From the NCBI GenBank assembly GCA_963663385.2, contig CAXXXD010000002.1, positions 672,001 through 736,000 on the forward strand: a stretch of 64,000 nucleotides of DNA, read 5' to 3'. The notes beneath the pieces were generated by a model. It was not told where the DNA came from, searched no databases, and was given only the letters and a program-made list of their open reading frames with translations. Shown piece by piece: positions 3,423 through 50,721 of this stretch. The position numbers were made by a program, and so were the translations under genes. The first letter of the stretch is position 1; each line of letters opens with the position of its first letter. The stretch is from Oceanispirochaeta sp. (GTDB lineage Bacteria > Spirochaetota > Spirochaetia > DSM-2461).

Positions 3423-4351
3423 TACAATTACCTCTCAGCTGAAAAACAAAACCTGAGGAATCCTCAATTCTCCCAGGCAATTTATCATTTCTCCGGAATT
3501 TTGTCATTGTTTATCCTCTCAGAACTGAAGGCACTTTCCCGGCCCCTGCGGACAGCAGATCCGGCTGTCTGGGCAGGGCTTCTTTCGCCTCCTGTTCGGA
3601 AAAGAGATCGGCTTTGCGCAGGATGCTTGTTATGACCTGGCTCTGGCAGGGGAAGAGATAGGCCAGATCGAATACTCCGGCGGCGATTGGTCCATATTTT
3701 CAGAGCTGATACTGGTTTAGGCATAAAAAAACCTCTCCATCATAGAGAGGTATTGAGTAACACCTGTAAAGGCAATGACCTAAGTAAATAACCGTATCAT
3801 TCTGTTTTCTCAAGTGGTTTGATTTATTAACAGTCACAAGTATGTCTTCGTTTTCAATCCATACCAGAAGGTAAATTAAAAATAGAAACATAAGCGCTAC
3901 AAAGTAGGAAAATAAAAAAACCTATATAGTTCTACCTTATTGGAAAAGGCATGCAACTTTTCAATTTAAAATCATCTAATAATAAATGATATTTTAAATA
4001 ATATCGAACAGGCAAACAAATGTCAAGTATATTTAAATCATTTAATCTGTGGGCTGTTCGCCCGTTCAGTTTCAGCTGTTCCTTTCCGCTCCCTGCGGAG
4101 TTTCTTTCGCTCCTGGCGCGCCGTTTCGCCGTTTTATCTCTTTCTGACGTTTGTCAGATGAGCATCAATGCTTTGCCGGTTTCAGTTTCCCCAGCGGGGC
4201 TGGAAAAATAACAGGAGCCTATCTCATTCTTCACAAGAAGCTTCTTATTTGATTGAAAAGAATCACGAAAGTGCAGTAGGATACACTCTCGTGATTCAGA
4301 GAGTCACTATTTTCCACTTGCTAGATAGCTCTGAAGGCTGTCAGGAACAGA

Positions 4352-4618
4352 TTAAAACCTTCGACTATCCTGGCGTTCCACTGCCTCATTGACCCGTAGG
4401 TTACGGCCGTCAAGTTCTTTTCCATTGAAGGTCGAAATAGCTGCTGCAGCAGCATCGTCTTCTGCCATTTCAATAAATCCAAACCCTTTGGATCGGTTTG
4501 TATCCCGATCTGTAATGATACGGGTAGAGATTACTTCTCCATACTGTGCGAAAAGTTCGATGAGATCGTCTTCGATGGTATTCCAGCTAAGGTTACCAAC
4601 ATAAATTTTCTTAGACAT
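4352..4618 (-). CDS. RRM (RNP-1) RNA-binding protein
   Basis: RNP-2 IYVGNL and RNP-1 KGFGFIEM; start reassigned to ATG at 4618 (MSKKIY) after a GGAG RBS. Confidence 0.93.
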   Translation of the reverse strand: MSKKIYVGNLSWNTIEDDLIELFAQYGEVISTRIITDRDTNRSKGFGFIEMAEDDAAAAAISTFNGKELDGRNLRVNEAVERQDSRRF

Positions 4619-5330
4619 AATGTCTCCTATCCCGGAATGTTCCGGTATGTATAATTTTACTGAATGATTATTGAACTGCGGGAATCGGAATTGAAGACAG
4701 GAAACAAAAAATTGGTTACTTTTAAAACAATTATACGGTTCTACATTAAAAAGATCAGACTGTAGTCCAGATAATATGTGGTTTCCTGACAAATGTCAAC
4801 ATCCGGGCCTGTAAGAAACCGAAAACTGTTTGTTTCAATGATTAATTGTACAGATAAATTCGCCATATCCACAGGTTTATATATAACTTAGCTTTCTAAA
4901 AAAATATAAAACTATCATTATGATCAACTTGTAAACGAGAAAGACTGCTTTAATACAGAGTACGATACCTATCGATCAGGCTTTGAAACGGAGAATTCCT
5001 ACTACAGGAATATTACGCGCGACTTAAACAGTTATCCGTTCAATTACGGCCATGCCCCTTCCTTGATGAAAAACTCTTCAGCTTCTTGGGCATGCTAAAC
5101 CGGAAAGTCAAGTTAGAAGGCCGGGACAGACTGTTAAGACAGACTTTAAAAACAAACGATGGTGAACAGTCAATATATTTTGTGTAGGGGAACAAAAAGC
5201 AGAAAACACTTTATCTATAAATAGCACTATTACCAAAGCAGTTTGATTTGACACGATGATATAAAAAGTATTAGTAATATATTCTGTAACCAATTAATAA
5301 ATAATTAGTTAATATATAGATTATCTCATG

Positions 5331-5564
5331 TTATTCTTCATTCCGAGACTTTTTGTGGAATAGAGAATACTGAACGATTCCCCACAACAGTCCGACACCA
5401 ACCAGTACAAGCACTCCTATCCATGGAACAATTCCCAGTAGGTACAAAATCAAATTGAAAAGGCCGAATATAACACCTGTCAGAAAAAGATATACCAATA
5501 ACCAGACCCATACAGGTTTATCGATTAGAAATTCCCTCAATCGGCTATTTTTCTTTTCACTCAT
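5331..5564 (-). CDS. Small two-TM membrane protein
   Basis: 77 aa, two hydrophobic segments, GGAGGTG RBS upstream, downstream of radical SAM copy 1. Confidence 0.7.
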   Translation of the reverse strand: MSEKKNSRLREFLIDKPVWVWLLVYLFLTGVIFGLFNLILYLLGIVPWIGVLVLVGVGLLWGIVQYSLFHKKSRNEE

Positions 5565-5623
5565 ACTGACACCTCCCCAGGTAAATCTCTCATTCCGGTT
5601 AGATCCTTTATGGAAATTCTCCG

Positions 5624-7105
5624 TCAGATCGATTCGGCCACTCTCTGAAAATGATATCCATATACAGCAAAGGTAAGGACCATCCTCAGCTTATCAGGAC
5701 AGTTAAACAGTGTATACCAGATCAGTTTCCAGAAATAGAACTTTCCATTCTTTTTCAGAACTCCAAGCTTAAGAAGAACTAAGAAAAATGATCGCAGACT
5801 GGAAAATGGACTGGCGTTGAGGTTTTCAAAAGGGTCCCTGTACTCTTCGAGAAAAACCCGGATTCTCTCAAAAAACAGCCTGGGGGAATAGATCTTTTTC
5901 ATAAGGGATCTGTATCCATTGATCAGAACATCCGGATGAATTTGGGGGATAAAATTCAGAATCCCATCCGTGTTATTTCCGGTCATATCCGCAATTATCC
6001 TGTTTTCCTTTTTCAGCCTTTTATAGAGACGGGTTCCCAAAGGAGCATTCAGAAGCCCTACCATAGCTGTGACAATCCCGCTGTTCTGAATAAATCTGGC
6101 CTGTCTATCAAAAATATCCACAGGATCGTTATCAAATCCAATGATAAACCCTCCCGAAACATTAAAACCTTTCCGCTGCATGATTTTCACACTCTGAATC
6201 AGATCCCGTCCCTGGTTCTGAATCTTATGACACTCATTCAGACTGGCTTCTTCCGAAGATTCAATTCCGATAAAACAGGTACTGAACCCGGCCTGCCTCA
6301 TCATATCCATCAGTTCCTCATCATCAGACATGTTTATAGAGGCTTCTGTTGTGAAATTGAAGGGATAATGGTGATCTTCCTGCCAGGAGATCAAAGCCGG
6401 AAGCATTTCACTTTTCAAACGGTTTTTATTCCCAATAAAATTATCATCTACAATAAAGACAGAACCTCTCCATTTCGCATCATACAGCGATGTCATTTCA
6501 TCAAGAAACTGATCCGTTTTTTTTACACGCGATTTATGACCGAAAAGAGCGGTTATGCTGCAGAACTCGCAATTGAATGGGCACCCTCTGGAATACTGAA
6601 GATCCATTGAAGCATAATCATTCAGATGAAGTAGACTCCAGTCCGGAATGGGGGTTTGTGACAGATCTGCAAAATCACCGGTCTCATAGACTCTTTTCAA
6701 ATGCCCCGATTCCAGATCCCGGACAAAAGGTTTCATCGTAATCTCTGCTTCATTCAACATAAAACAGTCTACATCGGGAAAACTCCCGGGATGCTGGGTG
6801 ACCATCGGACCGCCGGCTACAATTTTCGCCCCGACCTCTTTGCATCTTTTAACCACTTCTGTAAAAGATTTCTTCTGAATATCCATACCGCTAATGAAAA
6901 CAAAGTCAGCCCATAGAATATCTCTTAGAGACAACCTCCGCGTATTCAAATCCACCAGCTTTTTCTCCCACAACGAAGGAAGTAAGGATGCAACAGTCAA
7001 CAGGCCCAGAGGAGGGTCTGATGCTTTTTTGCCAATAAAGCTTAAAGCATATTTAAAGCTCCAGAATGTTATAGGTATTTCCGGATATATCAGGAGAATC
7101 TTCAA
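5624..7105 (-). CDS. B12-binding-domain radical SAM protein (DUF4070-type), copy 1
   Basis: PPLGLLTVA cobalamin-binding N-terminus, CxxxCxxC (RGCPFNCEFC), VDDNFIGN, GGFIIGFDND. Confidence 0.92.
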   Translation of the reverse strand: MKILLIYPEIPITFWSFKYALSFIGKKASDPPLGLLTVASLLPSLWEKKLVDLNTRRLSLRDILWADFVFISGMDIQKKSFTEVVKRCKEVGAKIVAGGPMVTQHPGSFPDVDCFMLNEAEITMKPFVRDLESGHLKRVYETGDFADLSQTPIPDWSLLHLNDYASMDLQYSRGCPFNCEFCSITALFGHKSRVKKTDQFLDEMTSLYDAKWRGSVFIVDDNFIGNKNRLKSEMLPALISWQEDHHYPFNFTTEASINMSDDEELMDMMRQAGFSTCFIGIESSEEASLNECHKIQNQGRDLIQSVKIMQRKGFNVSGGFIIGFDNDPVDIFDRQARFIQNSGIVTAMVGLLNAPLGTRLYKRLKKENRIIADMTGNNTDGILNFIPQIHPDVLINGYRSLMKKIYSPRLFFERIRVFLEEYRDPFENLNASPFSSLRSFFLVLLKLGVLKKNGKFYFWKLIWYTLFNCPDKLRMVLTFAVYGYHFQRVAESI

Positions 7106-7190
7106 ACTTAAACCTTCTACTCACAAATATACTATATTTATAATTATACCAGCCTAAATAATGGGTAAAGTAAAAGAAGTGTAAAATCTG

Positions 7191-8153
7191 ATGAGCACAG
7201 TTAAGAAAAAAATAACCCTCCGGACTTCGGTGACTATGTTTGTTCTTGTACAGATTTTCTTTCTCATACTGATAGGGCTTTGGATTTGGTTTTTTCTTAC
7301 TGATAATGAAATCAATCAGTCGTCGAACACTGTAATCAATTTCCCATTTTTTTCAGTCCCTGTGAAGACAGTTCTCTTTCTTTGTGGGCTATTACTGATT
7401 TTCCTGAATTCCGGAGGAACGTATTATTTATTTCAGAAATTCATTAAACAGACAAGAATTAATCGTATGTATGACAATTTTATCATCAATATAGTTCATG
7501 ACTTGAAGACACCTGCAGCATCCATTCAGCTGATTGGAGAAACACTTGCCAACAGAGACCTCTCAGATGATACTTATCATGATTTTCTTAACCGCCTGGA
7601 AAACGACACGACAAGGCTGAATCTGTTGATCAAATCCATTCTGGAGATTTCCAGAATATACAAGAAAAGTGACATGTTTTCGTTTGTTTCATTAAATGCG
7701 GATTTTTATGTCAGAACTGCAATCCGAGTTCTTCAAAGCCAATTCAACCTGGATAAAGACAGGATTTCTGTTGTTGGATATTCCAAGTGCCAGATAAGAA
7801 TAGATCCTTCTGCTTTTACAGCAGTCTTAAGCAATCTAATTGATAACTCAATAAAATACAGCTCCTCACCGGTGAAAATTAAAATATATTTAGGATATAA
7901 AAAGAAGAAGTTCATTTTAATTTTTTCAGATGAGGGAAGCGGTATCTCCCGGAAATTCAGAAAGCGTGTTTTCAAGAAGTTTGTTCAAATAAGAACGCTC
8001 CCCAATTCTACCCTCACAGGCTTGGGGTTAGGTCTCAACTGGTGCAGAGAGATTCTCCATATACACAAAGGAAGAATTCAGATTCAGCAAAAAAGGAATA
8101 GTAAGGGTACCTTTTTTTACATTGAACTGCCGGGAGACAGGTTGATTAATTAA
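7191..8153 (+). CDS. Membrane sensor histidine kinase, copy 1
   Basis: Two TMs, H-box HDLKTP, N-box NLIDNSIKY, G1 DEGSGI, G2 GLGLGL. Confidence 0.93.
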   Translation: MSTVKKKITLRTSVTMFVLVQIFFLILIGLWIWFFLTDNEINQSSNTVINFPFFSVPVKTVLFLCGLLLIFLNSGGTYYLFQKFIKQTRINRMYDNFIINIVHDLKTPAASIQLIGETLANRDLSDDTYHDFLNRLENDTTRLNLLIKSILEISRIYKKSDMFSFVSLNADFYVRTAIRVLQSQFNLDKDRISVVGYSKCQIRIDPSAFTAVLSNLIDNSIKYSSSPVKIKIYLGYKKKKFILIFSDEGSGISRKFRKRVFKKFVQIRTLPNSTLTGLGLGLNWCREILHIHKGRIQIQQKRNSKGTFFYIELPGDRLIN

Positions 8154-8168
8154 TAAGAGGGGAACACA

Positions 8169-8897
8169 TTGGCTAACGGGGAATTAATACTTCTGATTGA
8201 AGACGATAGGAATTTGGCATCTAGTGTAATATACAATCTGGAAAATGAAGGTTACAGAGTTCTCTGGGCAGAAGAGGGACATCAGGCTATGAAACTGTCG
8301 GATAATGGTGACATAAGTCTTGTCATACTGGACATAATACTTCCTTATTACAACGGATTCACAATACTGGAAAAAATAAGGTCGGACTCGCCATCCTTGC
8401 CTGTAATTATCGTTTCAGCAAGATCTGAAGTACAGGATAAAATCATAGGCCTTTCACTGGGTGCTGATGATTATCTGCCGAAACCGTTTCATATCAAGGA
8501 ATTACTTATGAGAGTAGCCGGAATGCTTAAGAGAAGGAACTGGTATAGAACGAATATTTCCGATATGGACGATTTTTCCTTTGGCGAAAACAGAATCAAT
8601 TTTGAAAATGCGACCTGCCAGTCCCCCAAGGGGTCATTTAAGCTGACACCTCTTGAAAGCGCCCTGTTAAAGTGCTTTATCTTAAACGAAGACCAGATAC
8701 TATCCAAACAGGAACTTCTTATGAAGGTTTGGAAAACGAGTACTGAAACAGAAACCCGAACTGTCGATAACTTTGTAATGCGGCTAAGAAAATACTTTGA
8801 AGAAGACCCTTCCAAACCAGTGTATTTTAAAAATATCAGAAAAAGAGGATACATATTCTCAACCAGAGGAGAATGGCATGAAAAAGGAAAAGAATGA
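8169..8897 (+). CDS. OmpR/PhoB-family response regulator, copy 1
   Basis: Receiver LIEDD...LDIILP...KPF plus winged helix (TRTVDNFVMRLRKYFE); TTG start. Confidence 0.94.
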   Translation: MANGELILLIEDDRNLASSVIYNLENEGYRVLWAEEGHQAMKLSDNGDISLVILDIILPYYNGFTILEKIRSDSPSLPVIIVSARSEVQDKIIGLSLGADDYLPKPFHIKELLMRVAGMLKRRNWYRTNISDMDDFSFGENRINFENATCQSPKGSFKLTPLESALLKCFILNEDQILSKQELLMKVWKTSTETETRTVDNFVMRLRKYFEEDPSKPVYFKNIRKRGYIFSTRGEWHEKGKE

Positions 8898-9741
8898 ACA
8901 AACGAAACTATTTGATATAATTAGCAATAGAATCTTTACACACAGGTTTATTTCAGGTATTGCCGGGGATCGCTTACAGTCAACCGAAGAAAAAGAGCTC
9001 TATGAAACTCTTTTAGAAGAATCAGAAGGAGACCTGTATGTAAAAGTTCTCTTCCATCTTACAAATGAAGTCTTTAATAAAGAAAAAGCCATTACAATCT
9101 GGAAAGCCATAATTGATCATAAAAGTTACTTGTCCAGACAACTCAATAGAAATGTTGAAATTACAGTAGCGACTCTGGATTATCTGACAAATATTAAAGA
9201 TGAGATTACGGAACCTAAGATAATAGGAAGCGCCTTTTTGGGGAAGATTGTTGAGCTATCCTCTGTGGATACATTAACAAAATTGTACAACAGACAGCAC
9301 CTGATGCAGGTTTTATCCAAAGAGACCAGTCGATTCAAACGCTATAAGATTCCATTCTCTCTCCTGATGATTGATATCGATCATTTTAAATCTATAAATG
9401 ATAAATACGGGCATCAAACGGGAGATAACGTTCTGGTGGAAATCAGTAAGTTACTGATTCTCGATCTGAGAGAGCTGGATATCTGTACAAGATTCGGCGG
9501 GGAAGAGTTTATGATCGTTCTTCCTCATACAACAGAGCCTGAATCCTATGAACTAGCAGAACGCATAAGAGAAAGAGTAGAAGAAAAGTACCGGGATGAG
9601 ATGAGAATAACAATCAGTATAGGAATATCAATTATCACGGAACAGAATAATGAGATTTCGGAAATCATAAGGAGAGCCGATAATGCCCTTTATCAGTCAA
9701 AGAAAAATGGTCGAAATAAGACGACCCTCTCAGATATTTAA
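8878..9741 (+). CDS. Diguanylate cyclase (GGEEF) with uncharacterised N-terminal domain
   Basis: DTLTKLYNR, IDIDHFKSINDKYGH, RELD I-site, RFGGEEF; start moved to ATG 8878 after a GAGGAG RBS. Confidence 0.92.
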   Translation: MKKEKNEQTKLFDIISNRIFTHRFISGIAGDRLQSTEEKELYETLLEESEGDLYVKVLFHLTNEVFNKEKAITIWKAIIDHKSYLSRQLNRNVEITVATLDYLTNIKDEITEPKIIGSAFLGKIVELSSVDTLTKLYNRQHLMQVLSKETSRFKRYKIPFSLLMIDIDHFKSINDKYGHQTGDNVLVEISKLLILDLRELDICTRFGGEEFMIVLPHTTEPESYELAERIRERVEEKYRDEMRITISIGISIITEQNNEISEIIRRADNALYQSKKNGRNKTTLSDI

Positions 9742-15998: not shown

Positions 15999-16304
15999 AT
16001 GGAGGAGTCGAATTTTCATGATCGACTGAAGAATACAGGCCGGAATGATCTGTGTCCCTGCGGATCGGGAAAGAAGTATAAAATGTGTCACCTGGATGCG
16101 GATGAACATCTGCAGCTTGAAGAACTCAAAGCTCGGGACCAGGCACGCCATGAGGAGGAACACGAACCGGCCCCGGCCGATGAATCTCCTCATTTTGAAA
16201 AAAACGAGAGGGTAGAGCATTCGGTCCATGTTCCGCCTCAGCGGGCCAGGGGGATTCAGGGGCGTAAGGGCAATGGTGTTCCCAGAAGATCCGCGTCTTC
16301 CTGA
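15999..16304 (+). CDS. Stand-alone SEC-C metal-binding motif protein
   Basis: GRNDLCPCGSGKKYKMCH; AGGAGG RBS before ATG 15999. Confidence 0.8.
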   Translation: MEESNFHDRLKNTGRNDLCPCGSGKKYKMCHLDADEHLQLEELKARDQARHEEEHEPAPADESPHFEKNERVEHSVHVPPQRARGIQGRKGNGVPRRSASS

Positions 16305-16510
16305 GCGGGAATTGAATCGGGACTCCATCGAAACTTCACAATCTGCAGATTAATATAAAGAGGAAGCTGTTCTATGATGGCCGGTCCCTATCTGGATTAC
16401 GGGCAGCTGTTTCTGAAGACCCTGGAGTCAACTGACGGTATCTTCGGATTGAAAACGCCCTTTTCCTCTTTTACGGGACGGAAGCCGTTGCCTTTCTGCA
16501 AATGAACTGG

Positions 16511-18058
16511 CTATTGTTCCGGCGGGGTGCTTCTCACGCCGGGAATCCTTACCTCTCCGTCAATGAGTCTGCCTTTCCAGCTTCCCCCGGGGATCTTCCG
16601 GATCTTTCCGGTTAGAATCATTCCTCCGATTATCTCCATTACATCATCCGGATCCCACTCTCTGAAAATACCGAAGCCCGGGGACCTGTAATACCGTCCC
16701 TGCCGGATTCCGCTGCTGAATCTTCCCAGCAGGAAATCTCCCAGCAGCCGTGAATCAAACCGTTTTCTATATACCCGGACAACACCTTTAACTGTATCTT
16801 CCGCCGGATCCTTCAGTATCACTTCGCCCCGGCAGACATCACAGTTGTCGCAGTCCTCGGGTTCAGCCTCCAGAATGGCCAGGAGACTCTCCCGGCGGCA
16901 GGTTGTTGAATCTTCTGCAAAGGCAACCAGTTTTCCGTACCGTTCCCGCAGCTCGGATCGGGGATTCGCCTTCTCCCGGTCGCGATCCTCCGGATGATAG
17001 AGCAGCACCGCCCGGCAGGGCTGTCTGTCCCGTCCCGCCCTGCCCGATTCCTGCAGGTAGGCCTCTACAGAAGAGGGGAGGGCCAGGTGAATAACCGTGC
17101 GGATATTTCCCTTGTCCATTCCCATGCCGTAGGCACAAGTGGAGCATAATATTCCTTCAGAAGAATCAAAAAACCATTTTTCCCGTTTTGTCCGGAGAGT
17201 GGGAGACAAGCCTGCATGGTAGTAGCGAATCTCATCAGGTACCAGTTCATTTATTCTTTCCCGAAGAATAAGAGCCACCTGTTCACACAGACGGCGTGTA
17301 GGGCAGAATATAATAGCCGGTCTTTCCGCTGTCTTTAAAACATCTTCCAGACCTTTTGTCCGTGAAAGAACCGGACGGACCTCATAATGGATATTCACCC
17401 TGTCCGGATTAGCCCTGACCAGATTAAAAGATCTGTCTTTTAAAAGATAATCCTGAATCTTTCCCAGAATAAGGGGCGAGGCGGTGGCGGTAAAAGCGGT
17501 GACCTGCTCAACCGGAAGATTGTTAAAGGTTTTACCCAGCTCCAGGCAGGCCGGGCGGAAGGTCTCACCCCATTCGGGAATGGTATGGGCTTCGTCGATG
17601 ACCAGATGGGAGATTTTCACATCTTTCAGTTTGTCCTGTACTTCGGGCAGGGTCAGCATCTCCGGGTTGGTCAGAAGCATCCGGATCTCTCCGGCCTGTA
17701 CGGAGCGCCATATATCCTCCTTCTCTTTGCGGCTCATTCCGCCCTTCAGCAGGGCCCCTTTCATCCCTGCCTCCTCCACCCGGCGGAGCTGATCCGCCAT
17801 TAATCCAAGGAGGGGAAACACGACAATCGTCAGACCCGGGAGAAGGGCGGCCGGCAGCATAAAGCAGAGGCTCTTCCCGGCCCCAGTGGGCAGCAGAACC
17901 ACCTGATTGGGCGGGGCTTCCTCCGCTTCCTCTCTGGAGAAAAGACCGGCTTTGCGGAGGATGTTTGTAATAACCAGGCGCTGGTAGGGGAAGAGGTAAG
18001 TGAGACCGAAGCGTTCGGCGGCGGTACGGGTGAGGATATCGGTTTTTTGTTCTTCCAT
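16511..18058 (-). CDS. recQ: RecQ-family ATP-dependent DNA helicase (intact)
   Basis: LPTGAGKSLCF, IDEAH, TATA, YHAGL, YGMGMDK, QESGRAGRD, Zn site CRR...CDNCDVC, RQC-like C-terminus. Confidence 0.93.
   Translation of the reverse strand: MEEQKTDILTRTAAERFGLTYLFPYQRLVITNILRKAGLFSREEAEEAPPNQVVLLPTGAGKSLCFMLPAALLPGLTIVVFPLLGLMADQLRRVEEAGMKGALLKGGMSRKEKEDIWRSVQAGEIRMLLTNPEMLTLPEVQDKLKDVKISHLVIDEAHTIPEWGETFRPACLELGKTFNNLPVEQVTAFTATASPLILGKIQDYLLKDRSFNLVRANPDRVNIHYEVRPVLSRTKGLEDVLKTAERPAIIFCPTRRLCEQVALILRERINELVPDEIRYYHAGLSPTLRTKREKWFFDSSEGILCSTCAYGMGMDKGNIRTVIHLALPSSVEAYLQESGRAGRDRQPCRAVLLYHPEDRDREKANPRSELRERYGKLVAFAEDSTTCRRESLLAILEAEPEDCDNCDVCRGEVILKDPAEDTVKGVVRVYRKRFDSRLLGDFLLGRFSSGIRQGRYYRSPGFGIFREWDPDDVMEIIGGMILTGKIRKIPGGSWKGRLIDGEVRIPGVRSTPPEQ
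17120..17997. repeat. recQ duplicated segment, copy A
   Basis: Near-identical direct repeat of 24598-25475 (offset 7478). Confidence 0.97.
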
Positions 18059-18280
18059 ACCCCTATATACACAGCCACATCCTCTGCTGCTTCAAAGGTT
18101 ATTTTAATATAATTTTGAGCTGTATCGAATCTCGGGAGGACTATATAAGGTACTGGCAAAATTCCGGATTCAAAAAAACTTCCAGGTAATGGTCAAATCA
18201 AGAAAGATTCTGTATTGGAAGGGTTACACCACAATTATTACCGGAGTACTGCTTGAATGCTGAAAAAGCCATTCCACGTG

Positions 18281-19762
18281 TCAGATAGATTCGGCCACTC
18301 TCTGAAAATGATATCCATATACGGCAAAGGTAAGAGCCATCCTCAGTTTTTCAGGATAGTTAAATAATGTATACCAGAATAGTTTCCAAAAATAGAACTT
18401 TCCATCCTTTTTTAGAACACCAAGCTTAAGAAGAACCAGAACAAATGATCGCAGACTGGAAAATGGACTGGCGTTGAGGTTTTCAAAAGGGCCCCTGTAC
18501 TCTTCGAGAAAAACACGGATTCTCTCAAAAAACAGCTTAGGGGAATAGATCTTTTTCATAAGGGACTTGTATCCATTAATCAGAACATCAGGAGGAATCT
18601 TGGGGATAAAATTCAGAATTCCATCCGTGTTATTTCCGGTTATACCCGCAATTATCCTTTTTTCCTTTTTCAGTCTTTCATACAGACGGGTTCCCAATGG
18701 AGCATTCAGAAGCCCTACCATAGCTGTGACAATCCCGCTGTTCTGAATAAATCTGGTCTGCCTATCAAAAATATCCACAGGATCGTTATCAAATCCTATG
18801 ATAAACCCTCCCGAAACATTGAAACCCTTCCGCTGCATGATTTTAACACTCTGAATCAGATCCCGTCCCTGGTTCTGAATTTTATGACACTCATTCAGAC
18901 TGGCTTCTTCCGAAGATTCAATTCCGATAAAACAGGTACTGAATCCGGCCTGCCTCATCATATCCATCAGTTCCTCATCATCAGACATGTTTATAGAGGC
19001 TTCTGTCGTAAAATTGAAGGGATAATGGTGATCTTCCTGCCAGGATATCAAAGCCGGAAGCATTTCACTTTTCAAACGGTTTTTATTCCCAATAAAATTA
19101 TCATCTACAATAAAGACAGAACCTCTCCACTTCGCCTTATACAGCGATGTCATTTCATCAAGAAACTGATCCGTTTTTTTTACACGTGATTTATGACCGA
19201 AAAGAGCGGTTATGCTGCAGAACTCGCAATTGAATGGGCACCCTCTGGAATACTGAAGATCCATTGAAGCATAATCATTCAGATGAAGTAGACTCCAGTC
19301 CGGAATGGGGGTTTGTGACAGATCTGCAAAATCACCGGTCTCATAGACTCTTTTCAAATGCCCCGATTCCAGATCCCGGACAAAAGGTTTCATCGTAATC
19401 TCTGCTTCATTCAACATAAAACAGTCTACATCGGGAAAACTCCCGGGATGCTGGGTGACCATCGGACCGCCGGCTACAATTTTCGCCCCGACCTCTTTGC
19501 ATCTTTTAACCACTTCTGTAAAAGATTTCTTCTGAATATCCATACCGCTGATGAATACAAAGTCAGCCCATAAAATATCGTTTAGAGACAACCTCCGCGT
19601 ATTCAAATCCACCAGCTTTTTCTCCCACAACGAAGGAAGTAAGGATGCAACAGTCAACAGGCCCAGAGGAGGGTCTGATGCTTTTTTGCCAATAAAGCTT
19701 AAAGCATATTTAAAGCTCCAGAATGTTATAGGTATTTCCGGATATATCAGGAGAATCTTCAA
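18281..19762 (-). CDS. B12-binding-domain radical SAM protein, copy 2
   Basis: 493 aa, near-identical paralogue of 5624-7105; differences concentrated in the C-terminal third. Confidence 0.92.
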   Translation of the reverse strand: MKILLIYPEIPITFWSFKYALSFIGKKASDPPLGLLTVASLLPSLWEKKLVDLNTRRLSLNDILWADFVFISGMDIQKKSFTEVVKRCKEVGAKIVAGGPMVTQHPGSFPDVDCFMLNEAEITMKPFVRDLESGHLKRVYETGDFADLSQTPIPDWSLLHLNDYASMDLQYSRGCPFNCEFCSITALFGHKSRVKKTDQFLDEMTSLYKAKWRGSVFIVDDNFIGNKNRLKSEMLPALISWQEDHHYPFNFTTEASINMSDDEELMDMMRQAGFSTCFIGIESSEEASLNECHKIQNQGRDLIQSVKIMQRKGFNVSGGFIIGFDNDPVDIFDRQTRFIQNSGIVTAMVGLLNAPLGTRLYERLKKEKRIIAGITGNNTDGILNFIPKIPPDVLINGYKSLMKKIYSPKLFFERIRVFLEEYRGPFENLNASPFSSLRSFVLVLLKLGVLKKDGKFYFWKLFWYTLFNYPEKLRMALTFAVYGYHFQRVAESI

Positions 19763-19847
19763 ACTTAAACCTTCTACTCACAAATATACTATATTTATAA
19801 TTATACCAGCCTAAATAATGGGTAAAGTAAAAGAAGTGTAAAATCTG

Positions 19848-20810
19848 ATGAGCACAGTTAAGAAAAAAATAACCCTCCGGACTTCGGTGACTATGTTTGT
19901 TCTTGTACAGATTTTCTTTCTCATACTGATAGGGCTTTGGATTTGGTTTTTTCTTACTGATAATGAAATCAATCAGTCGTCGAACACTGTAATCAATTTC
20001 CCATTTTTTTCAGTCCCTGTGAAGACAGTTCTCTTTCTTTGTGGGCTATTACTGATTTTCCTGAATTCCGGAGGAACGTATTATTTATTTCAGGAATTCA
20101 TTAAACAGACAAGAATTAATCGTATGTATGACAATTTTATCATCAATATAGCTCATGACTTGAAGACACCTGCAGCATCCATTCAGCTGATTGGAGAAAC
20201 ACTTGCCAACAGAGACCTCTCAGATGATACTTATTATGATTTTCTTAACCGCCTGGAAAACGACACGACAAGGCTGAATCTGTTGATCAAATCCATTCTG
20301 GAGATTTCCAGAATATACAAGAAAAGTGACATGTTTTCGTTTGTTTCATTAAATGCGGATTTTTATGTCAGAACTGCAATCCGAGTTCTTCAAAGCCAAT
20401 TCAACCTGGATAAAGACAGGATTTCTGTTGTTGGATATTCCAAGTGCCAGATAAGAATAGATCCTTCTGCTTTTACAGCAGTCTTAAGCAATCTAATTGA
20501 TAACTCAATAAAATACAGCTCCTCACCGGTGAAAATTAAAATATATTTAGGATATAAAAAGAAGAAGTTCATTTTAATTTTTTCAGATGAGGGAAGCGGT
20601 ATCTCCCGGAAATTCAGAAAGCGTGTTTTCAAGAAGTTTGTTCAAATAAGAACGCTCCCCAATTCTACCCTCACAGGCTTGGGGTTAGGTCTCAACTGGT
20701 GCAGAGAGATTCTCCATATACACAAAGGAAGAATTCAGATTCAGCAAAAAAGGAATAGTAAGGGGACCTTTTTTTACATTGAACTGACGGGAGACAGGTT
20801 GATTAATTAA
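19848..20810 (+). CDS. Sensor histidine kinase, copy 2
   Basis: Four visible aa differences from copy 1 (K/E, V/A, H/Y, P/T). Confidence 0.93.
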   Translation: MSTVKKKITLRTSVTMFVLVQIFFLILIGLWIWFFLTDNEINQSSNTVINFPFFSVPVKTVLFLCGLLLIFLNSGGTYYLFQEFIKQTRINRMYDNFIINIAHDLKTPAASIQLIGETLANRDLSDDTYYDFLNRLENDTTRLNLLIKSILEISRIYKKSDMFSFVSLNADFYVRTAIRVLQSQFNLDKDRISVVGYSKCQIRIDPSAFTAVLSNLIDNSIKYSSSPVKIKIYLGYKKKKFILIFSDEGSGISRKFRKRVFKKFVQIRTLPNSTLTGLGLGLNWCREILHIHKGRIQIQQKRNSKGTFFYIELTGDRLIN

Positions 20811-20825
20811 TAAGAGGGGAACACA

Positions 20826-21530
20826 TTGGCTAACGGGGAATTAATACTTCTGATTGAAGACGATAGGAATTTGGCATCTAGTGTAATATACAATCTGGAA
20901 AATGAAGGTTACAGAGTTCTCTGGGCAGAAGAGGGACATCAGGCTATGAAACTGTCGGATAATGGTGACATAAGTCTTGTCATACTGGACATAATACTTC
21001 CTTATTACAACGGATTCACAATACTGGAAAAAATAAGGTCGGACTCGCCATCCTTGCCTGTAATTATCGTTTCAGCAAGATCTGAAGTTCAGGATAAAAT
21101 CATAGGTCTTTCACTGGGTGCAGATGATTATCTGCCGAAACCGTTTCATTTAAAAGAATTGCTTTTGAGAGTAGCCGGAATGCTAAAAAGGAGGAACTGG
21201 TATAGAAATAATATTTCCGATATAGACGATTTTTCCTTTGGCGAAAACAGAATCAATTTTGAAAATGCGACCTGCCAGTCCCCAAAAGGGTCATTTCAAC
21301 TGACACCTCTTGAAAGTGCCCTGCTAAAGTGCTTTGTCTTAAACGAAGATCAAATACTATCCAAACAGGAACTTCTTAAGAAGGTTTGGAAAACGAGTAC
21401 TGAAGCAGAAACCCGAACTGTCGATAACTTTGTGATGCGGATAAGAAAATACTTTGAAGAAGATCCTTCCAAGCCAGTGTACTTCAAAAATATCAGGAAT
21501 AGGGGATACATATTCTCAACCAAAGGATAA
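20826..21530 (+). CDS. OmpR-family response regulator, copy 2
   Basis: Paralogue of 8169-8897, 8 aa shorter at the C-terminus. Confidence 0.93.
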   Translation: MANGELILLIEDDRNLASSVIYNLENEGYRVLWAEEGHQAMKLSDNGDISLVILDIILPYYNGFTILEKIRSDSPSLPVIIVSARSEVQDKIIGLSLGADDYLPKPFHLKELLLRVAGMLKRRNWYRNNISDIDDFSFGENRINFENATCQSPKGSFQLTPLESALLKCFVLNEDQILSKQELLKKVWKTSTEAETRTVDNFVMRIRKYFEEDPSKPVYFKNIRNRGYIFSTKG

Positions 21531-21770
21531 TGAAAGGAAAGAGGAAAAGAATGAGCAAACGAAACTATTTGATATAAAAGGATGGTTAAATAAAATACCG
21601 CAAAGGGGATTTCCCGGAAAAACTGGAATCGGCTGAAAACACTTCTCAAAAGACTCAAAGCAAATTGACAGGACACAAGTACACACAATTCAAATGAAAA
21701 GGTTTATACTTAAATATATGTATACTTGATAATCTAAAAAGATTATTTCGGGAAATAAAGGATAGACACT

Positions 21771-24308
21771 ATGGCTGCAGAATGCAATTTTGAGGGAATA
21801 AAAAAAATAGCTCACCCCAGAATTTCTCGTGATCTGCTTGAAGTGATATGCTCGGAGAAAGAAGCATCAGATAAACAAAAAAAGGAGATCGCAAAGATAT
21901 CCACAGACTTAGGCAGTAATTTCTATAGGGAAGTTCTTTTTTTATTGACTTATAGCGAGATTGATAACCCCGAAGTTGCAGAAAGAATCTGCCACAGTAT
22001 CGCAAAACATAAAATTGAAATGCAAAAAAAGCTTAAAAGAACTGTTCTTCTGGAAATTGCCGCATTGGACTATATCCATTCCAGAAGCAAAGCTGACTTA
22101 CCCGTTATGGTCAATAAGGATAATATCATCAATCAAATAGCCAGGCAGGCCATTACGGACAGTAAAACCACAGCATTCTCTGGTGAACAGTTGAAGGTTG
22201 ATATTCAAAAGGAAATGGATAGGACATTTAGATACGGCTTGACATTTTCTGTCATCATGATTGACCTGGACAACTTCAAAGCGATAAATGACACTCATGG
22301 ACACCAGAAGGGAGACCTTGCACTACAATTCTTCGCCTTACTCGTAGTTGAAAATCTCAGAAAACTGGATATTTTGTATCGTTTCGGCGGAGATGAATTT
22401 CTCATACTGCTCCCTCAGACTAATATTAAAGGGGCAGGGAAAATTGCCCTCAAATTACTAAAACTGCTCAATACAACTCCCTGTGAAGCTATTGGGCAGA
22501 CGATCTCTGCCAGTATGGGAGTTTCAGCTTATGGGAATATATACAGCAATAGTTATACAAAGCTGATTGATAGTGCAGACCAGGCTCTATACAAGGCGAA
22601 AGCAGAAGGGAAAAACCTTATAGCCCTATTCAGAGAAGGGAAATGTGTAATTCTCAAACAGGGAAAAGGCAAACAGCTAAAAAGCAGCAAAAATGAAAAT
22701 GAAAAAACTCCATGCCATCCAATTGTACCGGGATACGCTATGGGAGAGATTTATCTCTACAAAGATATTTTCTCCAGCCGAATAAGCCAATATGAAATTA
22801 AAGCAGAGGAAGTGGAAAATGAACTGGAGCGGATCAGGATAGCCATAATGAGTGTTGTCGATGATCTGTCGGAAATGCAGAGCATCGTTGAAGAAGAAAT
22901 GAGCAAAGAGCATGGAGCTATTTTCCTCGCCCACAAGTTGATTCTTCAGGACAGCCATATTTTCAATGATATAGAAAATGAATTAAACGAAAAATTATTA
23001 AACGGTGAGATTATCGTCAGAGATATATTCCGTAAACTGGAAACGAGATTTCTTCTATTCGAAGACAAGCAACGAAATGACAAAGCCAAAGATATCAGGG
23101 ACATCGGCGGTAGAGTCGTAAGAAAACTTCAGGGTAAAGACAAAAACCTGCTATCATCGCTACCGGAAAACACCATTCTTCTCTCTCAGAGACTACTTCC
23201 TTCCGATACTGTTTTCCTCGATAAGAAACATGTCAGAGCAATAATTACCGTAGAGGGGAGCCGCGGTTCCCATTCCGCCATTCTGGCGCGCGCTCTCGAT
23301 ATCCCCTATGTAACAATACGCCGGGAAATTGAACATCTGCCCAATCATACACAGGTTATTGTCGATGGCAACGGCAGCTCCATCATAACCAACCCTGATG
23401 CCCAGCTCATAAAAAAATACAGCGAACTTATAGAAGAGCAGAAATCAGCGGCCCTTCCGCAGGTCGTCTCTAGCAAACCTCTTGAATTCCATGGTAGAAA
23501 AATCTCACTTTTAGCTAATGTTTCCTGTCGGGAGGAAGCTCTGGAAGCCTTGTCAGCCGGAGCGGAAGGTGTAGGATTGTTCCGTGTGGAAAACATCTAT
23601 ATGTCGAGCCGAACAATGCCCGATGAAGATTATCTCCTGTCCCGTTTCACAGATATCCTCAACCCTTTGAAGGGTAAGGAGATAACTGTCAGGCTGGTAG
23701 ATATCGGTTCTGATAAAGTTCCGTCATATCTCAATCTGGGTAATGAAATCAATCCGGCTCTGGGTCTCAGAGGGGTGCGACTTCTCTTAAAACACAGAAA
23801 ACTGCTCCAAACACAACTATCTGCTTGTATAAGATTGAATAAAGAAATACCTGTTAAAATCATGCTTCCCATGGTAACGATGCCCTTGGAAATCAGACAA
23901 GTGCGCAATATTTTGAATAAAATGGATGGCGGAGACAAGATACAGATAGGAACCATGATTGAAACTCCTGCCGCAGTATTCCATATAGATGAGATATTGG
24001 AGGAATCTGATTTTATCAGCATAGGTACCAATGATCTCATTCAGTACACCATGGCATCGGACAGGGAAAATAAAGATGTAGCAGAGTATTTTGATAAAGG
24101 ATTTCAGGCACTGAGCAGAACTCTCGAAAATATATTCAAGAAGTCCAGAGAGGCTTCAAAGGACTGTGCGGTCTGCGGTGAAGCCGCTGGAGACAGCGAT
24201 TATATTCCGTCGCTGCTTAAACTGGGTCTAACGAAATTCAGCGTACTGCCGAATCTTATCCATAGGGTCAGAAAAGAAATTATCGAATACTCTGAAGCTG
24301 AGAATTGA
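21771..24308 (+). CDS. Fusion: uncharacterised N-domain + GGDEF diguanylate cyclase + PTS Enzyme I (PEP-protein phosphotransferase)
   Basis: IDLDNFKAINDTHGH, RKLD, RFGGDEF; then EI motifs GSHSAILARALDIP, GVGLFRVE, RLVDIGSDK, NPALGLRGVR, MIETPAA, SIGTNDLIQY, VCGE. Confidence 0.92.
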   Translation: MAAECNFEGIKKIAHPRISRDLLEVICSEKEASDKQKKEIAKISTDLGSNFYREVLFLLTYSEIDNPEVAERICHSIAKHKIEMQKKLKRTVLLEIAALDYIHSRSKADLPVMVNKDNIINQIARQAITDSKTTAFSGEQLKVDIQKEMDRTFRYGLTFSVIMIDLDNFKAINDTHGHQKGDLALQFFALLVVENLRKLDILYRFGGDEFLILLPQTNIKGAGKIALKLLKLLNTTPCEAIGQTISASMGVSAYGNIYSNSYTKLIDSADQALYKAKAEGKNLIALFREGKCVILKQGKGKQLKSSKNENEKTPCHPIVPGYAMGEIYLYKDIFSSRISQYEIKAEEVENELERIRIAIMSVVDDLSEMQSIVEEEMSKEHGAIFLAHKLILQDSHIFNDIENELNEKLLNGEIIVRDIFRKLETRFLLFEDKQRNDKAKDIRDIGGRVVRKLQGKDKNLLSSLPENTILLSQRLLPSDTVFLDKKHVRAIITVEGSRGSHSAILARALDIPYVTIRREIEHLPNHTQVIVDGNGSSIITNPDAQLIKKYSELIEEQKSAALPQVVSSKPLEFHGRKISLLANVSCREEALEALSAGAEGVGLFRVENIYMSSRTMPDEDYLLSRFTDILNPLKGKEITVRLVDIGSDKVPSYLNLGNEINPALGLRGVRLLLKHRKLLQTQLSACIRLNKEIPVKIMLPMVTMPLEIRQVRNILNKMDGGDKIQIGTMIETPAAVFHIDEILEESDFISIGTNDLIQYTMASDRENKDVAEYFDKGFQALSRTLENIFKKSREASKDCAVCGEAAGDSDYIPSLLKLGLTKFSVLPNLIHRVRKEIIEYSEAEN

Positions 24309-24591
24309 TCGCTATATAATTGCACATGAGTCTAAAACCCTGGCGGAAATTCTATTATTTGAGTGAGAACCCCGCCCCAATTCTTTTAGACTTCAACCGG
24401 ATTTATGCACTACTTCGGAAATTATGGACATATGAATCCTCATTATGAGATATATGCGGCGCTCACCATTCACTTGTCCTCTGACGAGTGAAACTTAATA
24501 TAGAAAATTTGAACAATTATGCCCGCTCTGTAAAGACATTACAGAATATACTGATTTGAAAGAGGCGAGAAATTATTAAACCCAACATAAA

Positions 24592-25533
24592 TTACAGTCC
24601 CATGCCGTAGGCACAAGTGGAGCATAATATTCCTTCAGAAGAATCAAAAAACCATTTTTCCCGTTTTGTCCGGAGAGTGGGAGACAAGCCTGCATGGTAG
24701 TAGCGAATCTCATCAGGTACCAGTTCATTTATTCTTTCCCGAAGAATAAGAGCCACCTGTTCACACAGACGGCGTGTAGGGCAGAATATAATAGCCGGTC
24801 TTTCCGCTGTCTTTAAAACATCTTCCAGACCTTTTGTCCGTGAAAGAACCGGACGGACCTCATAATGGATATTCACCCTGTCCGGATTAGCCCTGACCAG
24901 ATTAAAAGATCTGTCTTTTAAAAGATAATCCTGAATCTTTCCCAGAATAAGGGGCGAGGCGGTGGCGGTAAAAGCGGTGACCTGCTCAACCGGAAGATTG
25001 TTAAAGGTTTTACCCAGCTCCAGGCAGGCCGGGCGGAAGGTCTCACCCCATTCGGGGATGGTATGGGCTTCGTCGATGACCAGATGGGAGATTTTCACAT
25101 CTTTCAGTTTGTCCTGAACTTCGGGCAGGGTCAGCATCTCCGGGTTGGTCAGAAGCATCCGGATCTCTCCGGCCTGTACGGAGCGCCATATATCCTCCTT
25201 CTCTTTGCGGCTCATTCCGCCCTTCAGCAGGGCCCCTTTCATCCCTGCCTCCTCCACCCGGCGGAGCTGATCCGCCATTAATCCAAGGAGGGGAAACACG
25301 ACAATCGTCAGACCCGGGAGAAGGGCGGCCGGCAGCATAAAGCAGAGGCTCTTCCCGGCCCCAGTGGGCAGCAGAACCACCTGATTGGGCGGGGCTTCCT
25401 CCGCTTCCTCTCTGGAGAAAAGACCGGCTTTGCGGAGGATGTTTGTAATAACCAGGCGCTGGTAGGGGAAGAGGTAGGTAAGTCCGAATACTTCGGCGGC
25501 GGTCCGGGTCAGAAGGTCGGGGGATTGGTCCAT
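24592..25533 (-). pseudogene. recQ: 3'-truncated recQ copy (ends in helicase motif V)
   Basis: Matches the intact copy up to STCAYGMG, then L-stop; lacks motif VI, Zn site and RQC; probable start MDQSPD at 25533. Confidence 0.9.
24598..25475. repeat. recQ duplicated segment, copy B
   Basis: Near-identical to 17120-17997. Confidence 0.97.
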
Positions 25534-25798
25534 ATCTGTTTTATGCCCGGAAACGGGGTTGTGATTCAAAGGTGGTTTATCTGTACAGGATAAAGCTAAG
25601 GAAAAGAGAAAAAACAACCTCACCAGTATTTTAACGGGACTTGCTGTCATATACGGAATACAGATTCCCGTTGACAGGCCGGCATTTATAAAGGATAGTT
25701 TATTCAATGAATTAACTATCGAAATCGTATCTGAATTTCACCAGTTATCCGATATTTCAACGCCGGAAACTCCAAATAATAATCAATGAGGAAAAATC

Positions 25799-49854: not shown

Positions 49855-50721
49855 TCAGGTTCTCCCTCTCCGGCTTCTCTGAATCATTCCCATCACATTG
49901 TATATCAGCTGGGCGGCGGTGAAGTCGCAGAATCCGAGATGCTTTTGCGGCGCCAGTTCCACGCAGTCGAACCCCACTACCTGCCTCTGGCCGATGACAG
50001 ATTCCAGAAGGTCCAGGGTCTGATACCAGCTCAGTCCCCCCGGAACAGGGGTGCCTGTAGCCGGAACCAGGCTGCTGTCCAGCCCGTCGATGTCTATGGT
50101 TATATAAAGGAACTCCGGAAAGTCGGCGGGGAGGGACAGTGTCCGGATCTGTTTTGAAGAGGCTTCTCTGCCTGTGAGGCAGTATATCCCTTTTTCCTTT
50201 TGATACAGGTACTCCTCTTCGCACCAGGCCCTTATTCCCAGCTGGTAGATTTTCCACCCGCTCAGTTCATGGATTTTCCGTATCACCGAAGCGTGACTGT
50301 AGGGATTCCCTTCGTAATTGTCCCTCAGGTCCGCATGGGCATCGATCTGGACCAGTCCGACCCGTGTGCCGAAGCAATCGAAGACAGCCTGGGCGGCCCC
50401 CAGGCTGACCGTATGTTCTCCCCCCAGAAGGACGGGTATTTTCTGCATGCCCAGAACCCGGTTCGTCTGCTTCCTTATCCCTGCAACAACCTCTTCCGCA
50501 GTGTTTCCGGTTACCGCTTCGGCTGTGTAAATCCCTTCTTCGAAAGGAGAACTAAGGCCGTCCCATGTCTCCAGCTGGCCGGAAGCTTCAAGAATCGCCT
50601 CGGGTCCGCCGGCTGTTCCGCCGCCGTAGCTGACGCTTGCTTCAAGTGGGGCGGGGATCAAATGGAACAGAGCCTGTTCCGGTGCTGTGTTGGCCATTTC
50701 AGAGTAGAGAAAATGCTTCAT
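49855..50721 (-). CDS. speB: Agmatinase
   Basis: GGEHTVS, DAHADLR, DIDGLD, TGTPVPGG; in polyamine operon. Confidence 0.92.
   Translation of the reverse strand: MKHFLYSEMANTAPEQALFHLIPAPLEASVSYGGGTAGGPEAILEASGQLETWDGLSSPFEEGIYTAEAVTGNTAEEVVAGIRKQTNRVLGMQKIPVLLGGEHTVSLGAAQAVFDCFGTRVGLVQIDAHADLRDNYEGNPYSHASVIRKIHELSGWKIYQLGIRAWCEEEYLYQKEKGIYCLTGREASSKQIRTLSLPADFPEFLYITIDIDGLDSSLVPATGTPVPGGLSWYQTLDLLESVIGQRQVVGFDCVELAPQKHLGFCDFTAAQLIYNVMGMIQRSRRGRT

Follow-up and report, generated by a model that had tools for sequence, protein, structure and literature searches.

A conserved, uncharacterised fusion of a diguanylate cyclase module to a complete Enzyme I in an Oceanispirochaeta genome

Enzyme I (EI) of the phosphotransferase system (PTS) autophosphorylates from phosphoenolpyruvate (PEP) on a histidine of its swivelling N-terminal domain and then passes the phosphoryl group to HPr; its dimerisation is favoured by PEP and Mg. 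Diguanylate cyclases of the GGDEF type work as dimers, and cyclic di-GMP (c-di-GMP) bound at their RxxD motif, the I-site, cross-links and immobilises them. PleD and WspR are I-site-regulated cyclases, and PelD and PopA are c-di-GMP receptors with a degenerate GGDEF domain. Here we describe a gene in which a GGDEF domain and an EI are joined in one polypeptide. It lies in a stretch of 64,000 nucleotides from Oceanispirochaeta sp. (assembly GCA_963663385.2, contig CAXXXD010000002.1, positions 672,001 to 736,000), which we call the window and which belongs to contig C2 of genome G000 in our sample. The gene had been singled out in a preliminary description made from the sequence alone.

It has been reported, in the relevant sections of PMC13104625, that the N-terminal GAF domain of PtsP takes glutamine and alpha-ketoglutarate as ligands and controls autophosphorylation. 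In Vibrio cholerae, EIIA-Glc controls the c-di-GMP phosphodiesterase PdeS and is also connected with CsrD/MshH; as far as the sections dealing with them go, the known links between the PTS and c-di-GMP, in Vibrio and the enterobacteria, are only non-covalent ones at the level of EIIA (PMC8846402, PMC10333796). In the relevant sections of its main text, with the supplementary tables outside this statement, a 2022 census of c-di-GMP sensory domains mentions EIIA_1 and EIIC as the only PTS domains (PMC8846402), and a census of signalling proteins from 2005 expressly set PTS components aside (PMC1183210). Full-text literature searches, with subscription-only papers outside their scope, found no paper describing a GGDEF-EI fusion, in agreement with the preliminary description, which had named no characterised example. 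We found that the fusion is a real, conserved and uncharacterised architecture that combines known kinds of protein, the sensor-EI on one side and the cyclase fused to a partner on the other. As to its action, we tentatively favour the possibility that the N-terminal module regulates EI from the input side, much as GAF does in EI-Ntr, and that it also makes c-di-GMP.

The locus was confirmed to be one intact gene with four parts: an N-terminal domain (N-domain), a GGDEF domain, a linker and a full EI (Table 1). The open reading frame (ORF) begins with ATG, 9 nt after an AAAGGA, and runs for 845 aa with no internal stop or frameshift in the window's ORF list, just as first described. The N-termini of orthologues agree with the chosen start codon (alignment A1), and promoter and terminator scans of the gene gave counts no higher than shuffled expectation. 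The preliminary description had proposed to confirm the junction with reads, and it is indeed bridged: single contigs of runs X1, X2 and X6, from three studies and with one of the three possibly the window's own source, span 21600-24400 with 0, 0 and 2 differences and no indels. Furthermore, a word-indexed protein search returned 18 protein clusters, 34-100% identical, in which GGDEF and EI domains occur together; Spirochaeta isovalerica (P0011) and an Elusimicrobia metagenome-assembled genome (MAG) each contributed one. Two neighbouring genes falsely joined in assembly or annotation would be the trivial explanation, and the only nearby circumstance that recalls it, recent segmental duplications in the surrounding region, lent it no support. 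Against an uninterrupted frame, indel-free spanning contigs, full-length orthologues in three other species genomes and many metagenomic proteins, such an artefact is vanishingly improbable, and we rejected it as far as sequence data reach.

By every sequence-level membership test, the predicted protein is both an Enzyme I and a GGDEF cyclase. It scored 408.6 bits against TIGR01417 (PTS_I_fam; curated NCBIfam cut-off 341.7), and PF05524, PF00391 and PF02896 are all present and in order. The cyclase part scored 144.2 bits against TIGR00254 (NCBIfam cut-off 37.4) and 120.7 bits against PF00990 (Pfam cut-off 23.8). The motifs named in the preliminary description were all found at the expected positions, together with NDTHGH: IDLDNFK at 164, NDTHGH at 173, RKLD at 197-200 and GGDEF at 206-210 in the cyclase, where YKAKAEGKN and NDTHGH..GD are also canonical and RKLD is separated from GGDEF by the five residues ILYRF; and SHSAILAR at 500 (His501), GLFRVEN at 602, RLVDIGSDK at 641, GLRGVR at 665, MIETP at 729, GTNDL at 752 and VCGE at 801 (Cys802) in EI. 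In alignments with solved EIs (2hro, 2wqd and 2kx9/2hwg), His501 in GSRGSHSAILARA falls on the phospho-histidine motif GGRTSHTSIMARS of 2kx9/2hwg, and GLFR, RLVDIGSDK, GLRGVR, MIETP, GTNDL and VCGE, the last with its cysteine, align as well. We take His189 and Cys502 to be the counterparts of His501 and Cys802 in E. coli EI, and the metal and guanine residues flanking GGDEF presumably have the roles that we assigned to them from PleD. Cyclase activity and PEP-dependent autophosphorylation with transfer to HPr are thus both predicted. The protein was set apart from the GAF-bearing EI-Ntr at the outset, and rightly so: a Pfam scan found no GAF domain in it, and it reached 275.5 bits against a cut-off of 583 for the EI-Ntr/PtsP equivalog NF008283.

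Anatomy and residue conservation are directly observed, and so are family distribution and genomic context. An alignment of 28 fused homologues (A2) revealed that the EI histidine and cysteine are present in all 28 and that the PEP-site residues are kept in 27; R605, D644, D755 and C802 show no variation in A2. The sole member with a degraded PEP site is P0150, which has Q, Q and G at three residues. In this metagenomic protein of 867 aa, GGDEF is intact, EI has decayed (QLPD, MIQTP, DSGDL, LCGK) and the phospho-histidine is kept, making it a mirror image of the members with a degenerate GGDEF. The latter are six in A2, GG[DE]EF being intact in the other 22, and they include a paralogue on contig C3 of the source genome with DRNRF in place of GGDEF and RLTD at the I-site. 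The N-domain residues H80, R90 and D100 are found in 28 of 28, including all six with a dead GGDEF. Two more degenerate members, P0006 and P0013, occur in A1, and RxxD is kept by five of these eight. Because the triad and EI are conserved where GGDEF is dead, the sensor could act only through EI where cyclase catalysis has been lost. One might go further and regard the GGDEF domain as a sensor of GTP or c-di-GMP only in vivo, which would make the fusion another sensor-EI; degenerate members such as the C3 paralogue, and an N-terminal placement like that of the sensor domains of other EIs, speak for this. For the window protein we nevertheless hold it to be highly doubtful, as every recognisable catalytic motif is canonical (IDLDNFK with its metal Asp, NDTHGH, GGDEF, YKAKAEGKN) and the Pfam and TIGR scores are strong.

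With the N-domain alone as query, a profile-free search of 1.84 billion representatives found 55 proteins at E<=1e-3. We domain-scanned 42 of them, that is, all but 12 short fragments and the already known P0011: 24 carry GGDEF only, 15 GGDEF and EI, one GGDEF and a receiver, and two no Pfam domain. The GGDEF-only proteins mostly have 270-320 aa, and of the 40 scanned proteins with a GGDEF domain, 39 have its start between residues 106 and 168 (the exception, at 211, is the cut P0163). The N-domain occurred in 18 of 401 genomes sampled evenly across the phylum, and outside G000 it was always in frames of 278-433 aa, i.e. stand-alone. Across 54 rows, fused and stand-alone alike, H80, R90 and D100 do not vary. 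The combination of N-domain and GGDEF, a helical domain of about 125 aa directly before the cyclase, is thus by its sequences a self-contained cyclase family that also exists without EI. One stand-alone paralogue lies in the window itself, 12.8 kb upstream of the fusion gene (N-domain match G000:C2:680959-681192). In P0131, a metagenomic protein of 424 aa, the N-domain and GGDEF are followed by a C-terminal receiver domain, an order unusual for a response-regulator cyclase. RxxD was present in 22 of 24 non-EI relatives checked, namely 23 GGDEF-only proteins and P0131.

The N-domain (aa 1-130) was modelled as a helical bundle with a predicted local distance difference test score (pLDDT) of 73.9 and helices at 20-28, 34-60, 67-88, 94-106 and 116-129, the last mostly within the low-confidence connector between N-domain and GGDEF. 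Pfam at E<=10 yielded only noise for it, no PDB match by Foldseek had an E below 1.7, and the best VIA-align match, to histone-fold-like helices, had a Z of 5.3, below the level meaningful for helical models. An ESM Atlas feature search reached 0.82 at best, with all matches in unnamed clusters. The missing structural match does not show the fold to be new. A homodimer prediction for the N-domain scored 0.39 (mark 0.42), and we used it as evidence in neither direction.

In the source genome (5.3 Mb, 98% complete), five EI paralogues exceed the TIGR01417 cut-off: a plain EI of 580 aa, which is the separate canonical ptsI whose presence the preliminary description had suggested checking, a GAF-EI of 790 aa, a weak-GAF EI of 749 aa, the GGDEF-EI fusion and the degenerate-GGDEF EI of 808 aa. 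GAF or a weak GAF occupies the N-terminus in the genome's other extended EIs. We examined the relationships of the EI parts in a quick IQ-TREE analysis (LG+G4, 57 rows), with support from the Shimodaira-Hasegawa approximate likelihood ratio test (SH-aLRT) only. The fusion EI falls in a clade of 26 rows (starred in the tree; 17 GGDEF-fused and nine unfused; SH-aLRT 98), nested in a larger group (SH-aLRT 100); the genome's plain EI and its two GAF-type EIs lie outside that group. In this tree the fusion EI belongs to a clade separate from the organism's plain and GAF-type EIs, and a single origin of the fusion may be compatible with it; the internal order is unsure, because several rows are long-branched.

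About 30 distinct proteins from several phyla share the architecture, the outcome of a distribution search of the kind that had been recommended at the start. Their labels are Spirochaetota (including Spirochaetales), Elusimicrobia, Fibrobacterota (including Chitinispirillaceae) and Omnitrophota; one 3.5-kb contig was binned as Promethearchaeota, a label that we do not trust. The named ones are all annotated merely as PtsI (phosphoenolpyruvate-protein phosphotransferase). Among 38 species genomes of the window's family, full-length orthologues were found only in G000 itself, G008 (98%), G009 (66%) and G016 (64%, another genus), a count that leaves out a match in G026 (query 225-838, 827-aa frame) and EI frames of 844-912 aa in G024, G033, G034 and G037. 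The diverged paralogue type with degenerate GGDEF occurs on G000 contig C3, in G005 and in G017, where it is cut by the contig end. Since all four genomes with a fusion orthologue also have other EI matches, of plain length and of about 750-790 aa, the fusion is an extra EI and not the sole one. A pattern search built on A2 was dominated by ordinary EIs through GTNDL; among the 80 loci kept, L035 (an Elusimicrobia MAG) matches from residue 144, inside GGDEF, and L072 from residue 271.

In addition, the genus has a second link between a diguanylate cyclase and an EI, as its sequences indicate: a gene for a 1027-aa propeller/Y_Y_Y-GGDEF cyclase stands directly before the GAF-EI gene, on the same strand and with overlapping ends. 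The pair was present in 6 of 11 loci examined, all of them in the window's genus (6 of 7 there), and missing at four loci from other genera and one from the same genus. The sensor part of the propeller cyclase is 52-61% identical among the paired loci.

The two halves of the fusion might be independent activities, brought together only for co-expression or co-localisation, for example to make c-di-GMP near PTS partners. The full-length model (pLDDT 80.8, predicted template modelling score (pTM) 0.50) would allow this, with a domain arrangement of low confidence and low-confidence stretches at 1-15, 108-127, 298-307 and 658-661. The third of these lies in the linker, where pLDDT falls below 50; homologues differ there by indels (A1 columns ~320-345), and we predict from the model that the linker is flexible. 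Moreover, either half decays separately in some lineages. We still consider such independence rather unlikely, because proteins from several phyla keep the same domain order and spacing even at identities as low as about 33-36%, and the conserved cyclase/GAF-EI gene pair in the same genus likewise argues for a functional tie beyond chance.

We then considered the network in which the protein would operate. The genome encodes a single HPr, on contig C1 beside HprK, with both His15 and Ser46 contexts present, and ten matches to EIIA_2 (EIIA-Ntr-type), none of them within C2:672001-736000; the window therefore holds no HPr or EII gene, as first described. Eight EIIA_2 proteins were examined, three of them stand-alone and five fused: to a Na+/H+ exchanger (L011), an amino-acid permease (L015), an HTH domain (HTH_17, L013), a CBS pair (L017) and a diadenylate cyclase (DAC) domain. 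The other two matches lie in frames of 619 and 634 aa. The genome gave no match to PTS_EIIC, EII-Sor, EIIC-GAT, PTS_IIB, EIIA_1 or EIIA-man, all six of which were detected in control genomes. Because no sugar EIIB/EIIC family is matched, the organism's PTS seems to serve regulation only, which bears out the earlier placement of the fusion in signalling rather than transport. The EIIA-DAC protein suggests that cyclic di-AMP (c-di-AMP) synthesis is under PTS phosphorylation control. The genome also has 59 GGDEF matches and therefore a large c-di-GMP network.

Our preferred reading is of a bifunctional signalling enzyme, a sensor-cyclase tethered flexibly to the N-terminus of a catalytically complete EI. 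The N-domain and GGDEF would hold the position of GAF in EI-Ntr and act as the regulatory input of EI. A putative ligand would bind at the H80/R90/D100 site, and c-di-GMP, either self-made or from a cell pool fed by up to ~59 GGDEF domains, would bind at the I-site. Both events could change the packing of the two N-terminal modules in the EI dimer and thereby the swivelling of the EI N-terminal domain needed for autophosphorylation of His501 and transfer to HPr, so that c-di-GMP status would be read out in how far HPr and the EIIA domains are phosphorylated and in their outputs. In most members, including the window protein, the module would also synthesise c-di-GMP and thus be both source and local receiver of the messenger. 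This is the most economical reading because the module sits where GAF does and because selection, on the triad among others, persists after cyclase loss; nor is EI dimerisation needed to build the cyclase, since the same family occurs without EI. The preliminary description had offered coupling in either direction. Its account of the anatomy, the intact catalytic modules and the signalling context stands, and between its two directions the evidence leans, without settling the matter, to the N-terminal module and I-site tuning EI, given the EI-less cyclase family, the dead GGDEF in 6 of 28, the N-terminal GAF in other EIs and the flexible linker.

Several points weigh against this reading. Both enzyme activities, the HPr partner and the direction of coupling are themselves predictions. 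With a disordered linker and a pTM of 0.50, the two halves cannot be said to share a defined interface, and RxxD characterises the N-domain-GGDEF family as a whole, so its retention is not specific to the fusion. The neighbourhood yields no functional clue, because the upstream cassette of histidine kinase and response regulator is recently duplicated and absent at the orthologues. Furthermore, 22 of 28 members have kept GG[DE]EF intact, as has the window protein, so that cyclase activity is probably under selection; the cyclase could be the main output and EI its regulator, and the receiver that P0131 carries at the place of EI would, by analogy, fit phosphorylation acting on the cyclase. In that case, the one that the preliminary description had put first, EI would be the input and PEP status would gate c-di-GMP synthesis: the phosphorylation state of His501, or tightening of the dimer by PEP and Mg, would decide whether the two tethered GGDEF domains come together, and the c-di-GMP output would report the PEP:pyruvate ratio or a backlog of phosphoryl groups on HPr. 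The conserved dimerisation barrel and PEP site agree with this, a flexible tether suits control by proximity, and P0131 offers a parallel for control by a C-terminal phospho-domain. The intact cyclase of most members and the receiver of P0131 make this a serious rival; we think it less likely all the same, for the N-domain-GGDEF family is independent of EI (24 of 42 scanned) and presumably dimerises and is regulated alone, and gating by PEP cannot explain the six of 28 members with a dead cyclase motif and intact EI and N-domain. The opposite decay occurs too, in P0150, with its degraded PEP site and intact GGDEF, so both patterns exist.

A wider extension of the preferred reading, in which the N-terminal module tunes EI, is a cascade of three messengers: c-di-GMP at the fusion would set the flux from PEP to HPr, and the relay would control the EIIA-diadenylate cyclase and the EIIA-fused ion and amino-acid transporters. 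We offer this as speculation with little probability; if true, it would wire c-di-GMP, PEP status and c-di-AMP in series by covalent fusions in a transport-free PTS.

The surroundings of the gene bear the marks of recent rearrangement. A direct duplication has placed its first copy (5623-8920) before the stand-alone N-domain+GGDEF gene and its second, which stops 193 bp short of the fusion ATG, before the fusion gene. We considered an operon with the upstream histidine kinase and response regulator as a functional clue and rejected it: the duplication is recent, at 96.8% identity, and the cassette does not precede the orthologues in G009, which has a helicase and a Crp-type regulator there, and G016, which has a radical-SAM gene and a PAS protein. 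A direct repeat of 926 bp, 98.5% identical (17117-18042 and 24595-25520), brackets the block with the fusion gene, and these helicase repeats suggest a recent rearrangement. The G+C content is 0.53-0.55 at 1-2000, 16001-18000 and 50001-52000, compared with ~0.39-0.48 elsewhere in the window.

Table 1. Features of the fusion gene, its surroundings and related loci (window positions unless a contig or locus is given)
Feature	Position	Strand	Basis
Whole N-domain-GGDEF-EI fusion gene, 845 aa	21771..24308 incl. stop codon	+	ORF listing, domain matches, spanning contigs
N-domain, helical, invariant H80/R90/D100	aa 1-126; 21771..22148	+	No Pfam match; predicted model
GGDEF diguanylate-cyclase domain	aa 127-282; 22149..22616	+	PF00990 6.5e-35, TIGR00254 144.2 bits
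I-site RKLD	aa 197-200; 22359-22370	+	Motif position
A-site GGDEF	aa 206-210; 22386-22400	+	Motif position
GGDEF-EI linker, Lys/Ser/Asn-rich, length varies among homologues	aa 283-316; 22617..22718	+	pLDDT, alignment indels
EI N-terminal HPr-binding subdomain	aa 317-432; 22719..23066	+	PF05524 (PEP-utilisers_N) 3e-16; aligned to solved EIN structures
EI mobile phospho-histidine domain	aa 465-534; 23163..23372	+	PF00391 (PEP-utilizers) 2.3e-15
His501 codon	23271-23273	+	Aligned to phospho-His motif of solved EIs
EI C-terminal PEP-binding/dimerisation barrel	aa 574-838; 23490..24284	+	PF02896 (PEP-utilizers_C) 5.2e-79
Cys802 codon	24174-24176	+	Aligned to MCGELAGD of solved EIs
Stand-alone N-domain+GGDEF paralogue, ~287 aa from Met 8878	8878..9741	+	GGDEF 4.5e-47; listed ORF starts TTG 8797
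Plain ptsI	C4:957498-959186		653.6 bits, 580 aa
Propeller/Y_Y_Y-GGDEF + GAF-EI pair	L114:1257-4340 and 4216-6588 = G000:C2:62756-68087	same strand	Domain scan
EIIA-DAC protein, 441 aa	L016:613-1935 = G000:C2 near 337661-338056	-	EIIA-Ntr-type aa 15-145, DAC aa 310-435
RecQ/DEAD-type helicase ORF, 515 aa	16511-18058	-	Holds first 926-bp repeat
Segmental duplication copy 2, 3298 bp, 96.8% identical to 5623-8920	18280..21577	.	blastn, repeat search, Pfam
Radical-SAM/B12/DUF4070 gene (copy 2)	18281-19762	-	Pfam
Histidine kinase gene (copy 2)	19848-20810	+	Pfam
OmpR-type response regulator gene (copy 2)	20826-21530	+	Pfam
RecQ/DEAD-type helicase ORF, 371 aa, apparently truncated	24592-25707	-	Holds second 926-bp repeat

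The fusion extends the concept of the sensor-EI beyond GAF, defines a new cyclase sensor domain with an invariant H/R/D triad, and comes from a lineage in which one HPr would receive input from several EI paralogues in parallel. It joins physically two of the main currencies of bacterial signalling. As the fusion is covalent, both predicted activities reside in one purifiable protein, and the direction of their coupling is directly testable. Compared with PleD and WspR, the protein has the same A-site GGDEF, with RxxD five residues upstream and an N-terminal sensor/dimerisation module ahead; it differs in that its sensor is a helical N-domain instead of a receiver and that a PEP-dependent phosphotransferase of 530 aa follows the cyclase. 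PelD and PopA provide a model for the five of eight members that lack GG[DE]EF and keep RxxD, the C3 paralogue included, whereas the window protein retains a canonical GGDEF. As in the EIIA-Glc systems with PdeS and CsrD/MshH, PTS phosphorylation state would be tied to c-di-GMP metabolism, but those links are non-covalent, act at the EIIA tier and involve a phosphodiesterase or a degenerate protein, whereas here the link is covalent, at the EI tier and to a cyclase. The closest likeness is to EI-Ntr (PtsP), a complete EI with an N-terminal small-molecule sensor that feeds HPr/NPr and EIIA-Ntr-type regulators and not sugar transport. The fusion differs from it in having a helical N-domain and GGDEF in place of GAF, in that the module is itself a predicted second-messenger enzyme, and in belonging to another EI clade. 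Judged from its sequence, it works most like EI-Ntr, as a sensor-EI for a regulatory PTS, without being a member of the EI-Ntr family.

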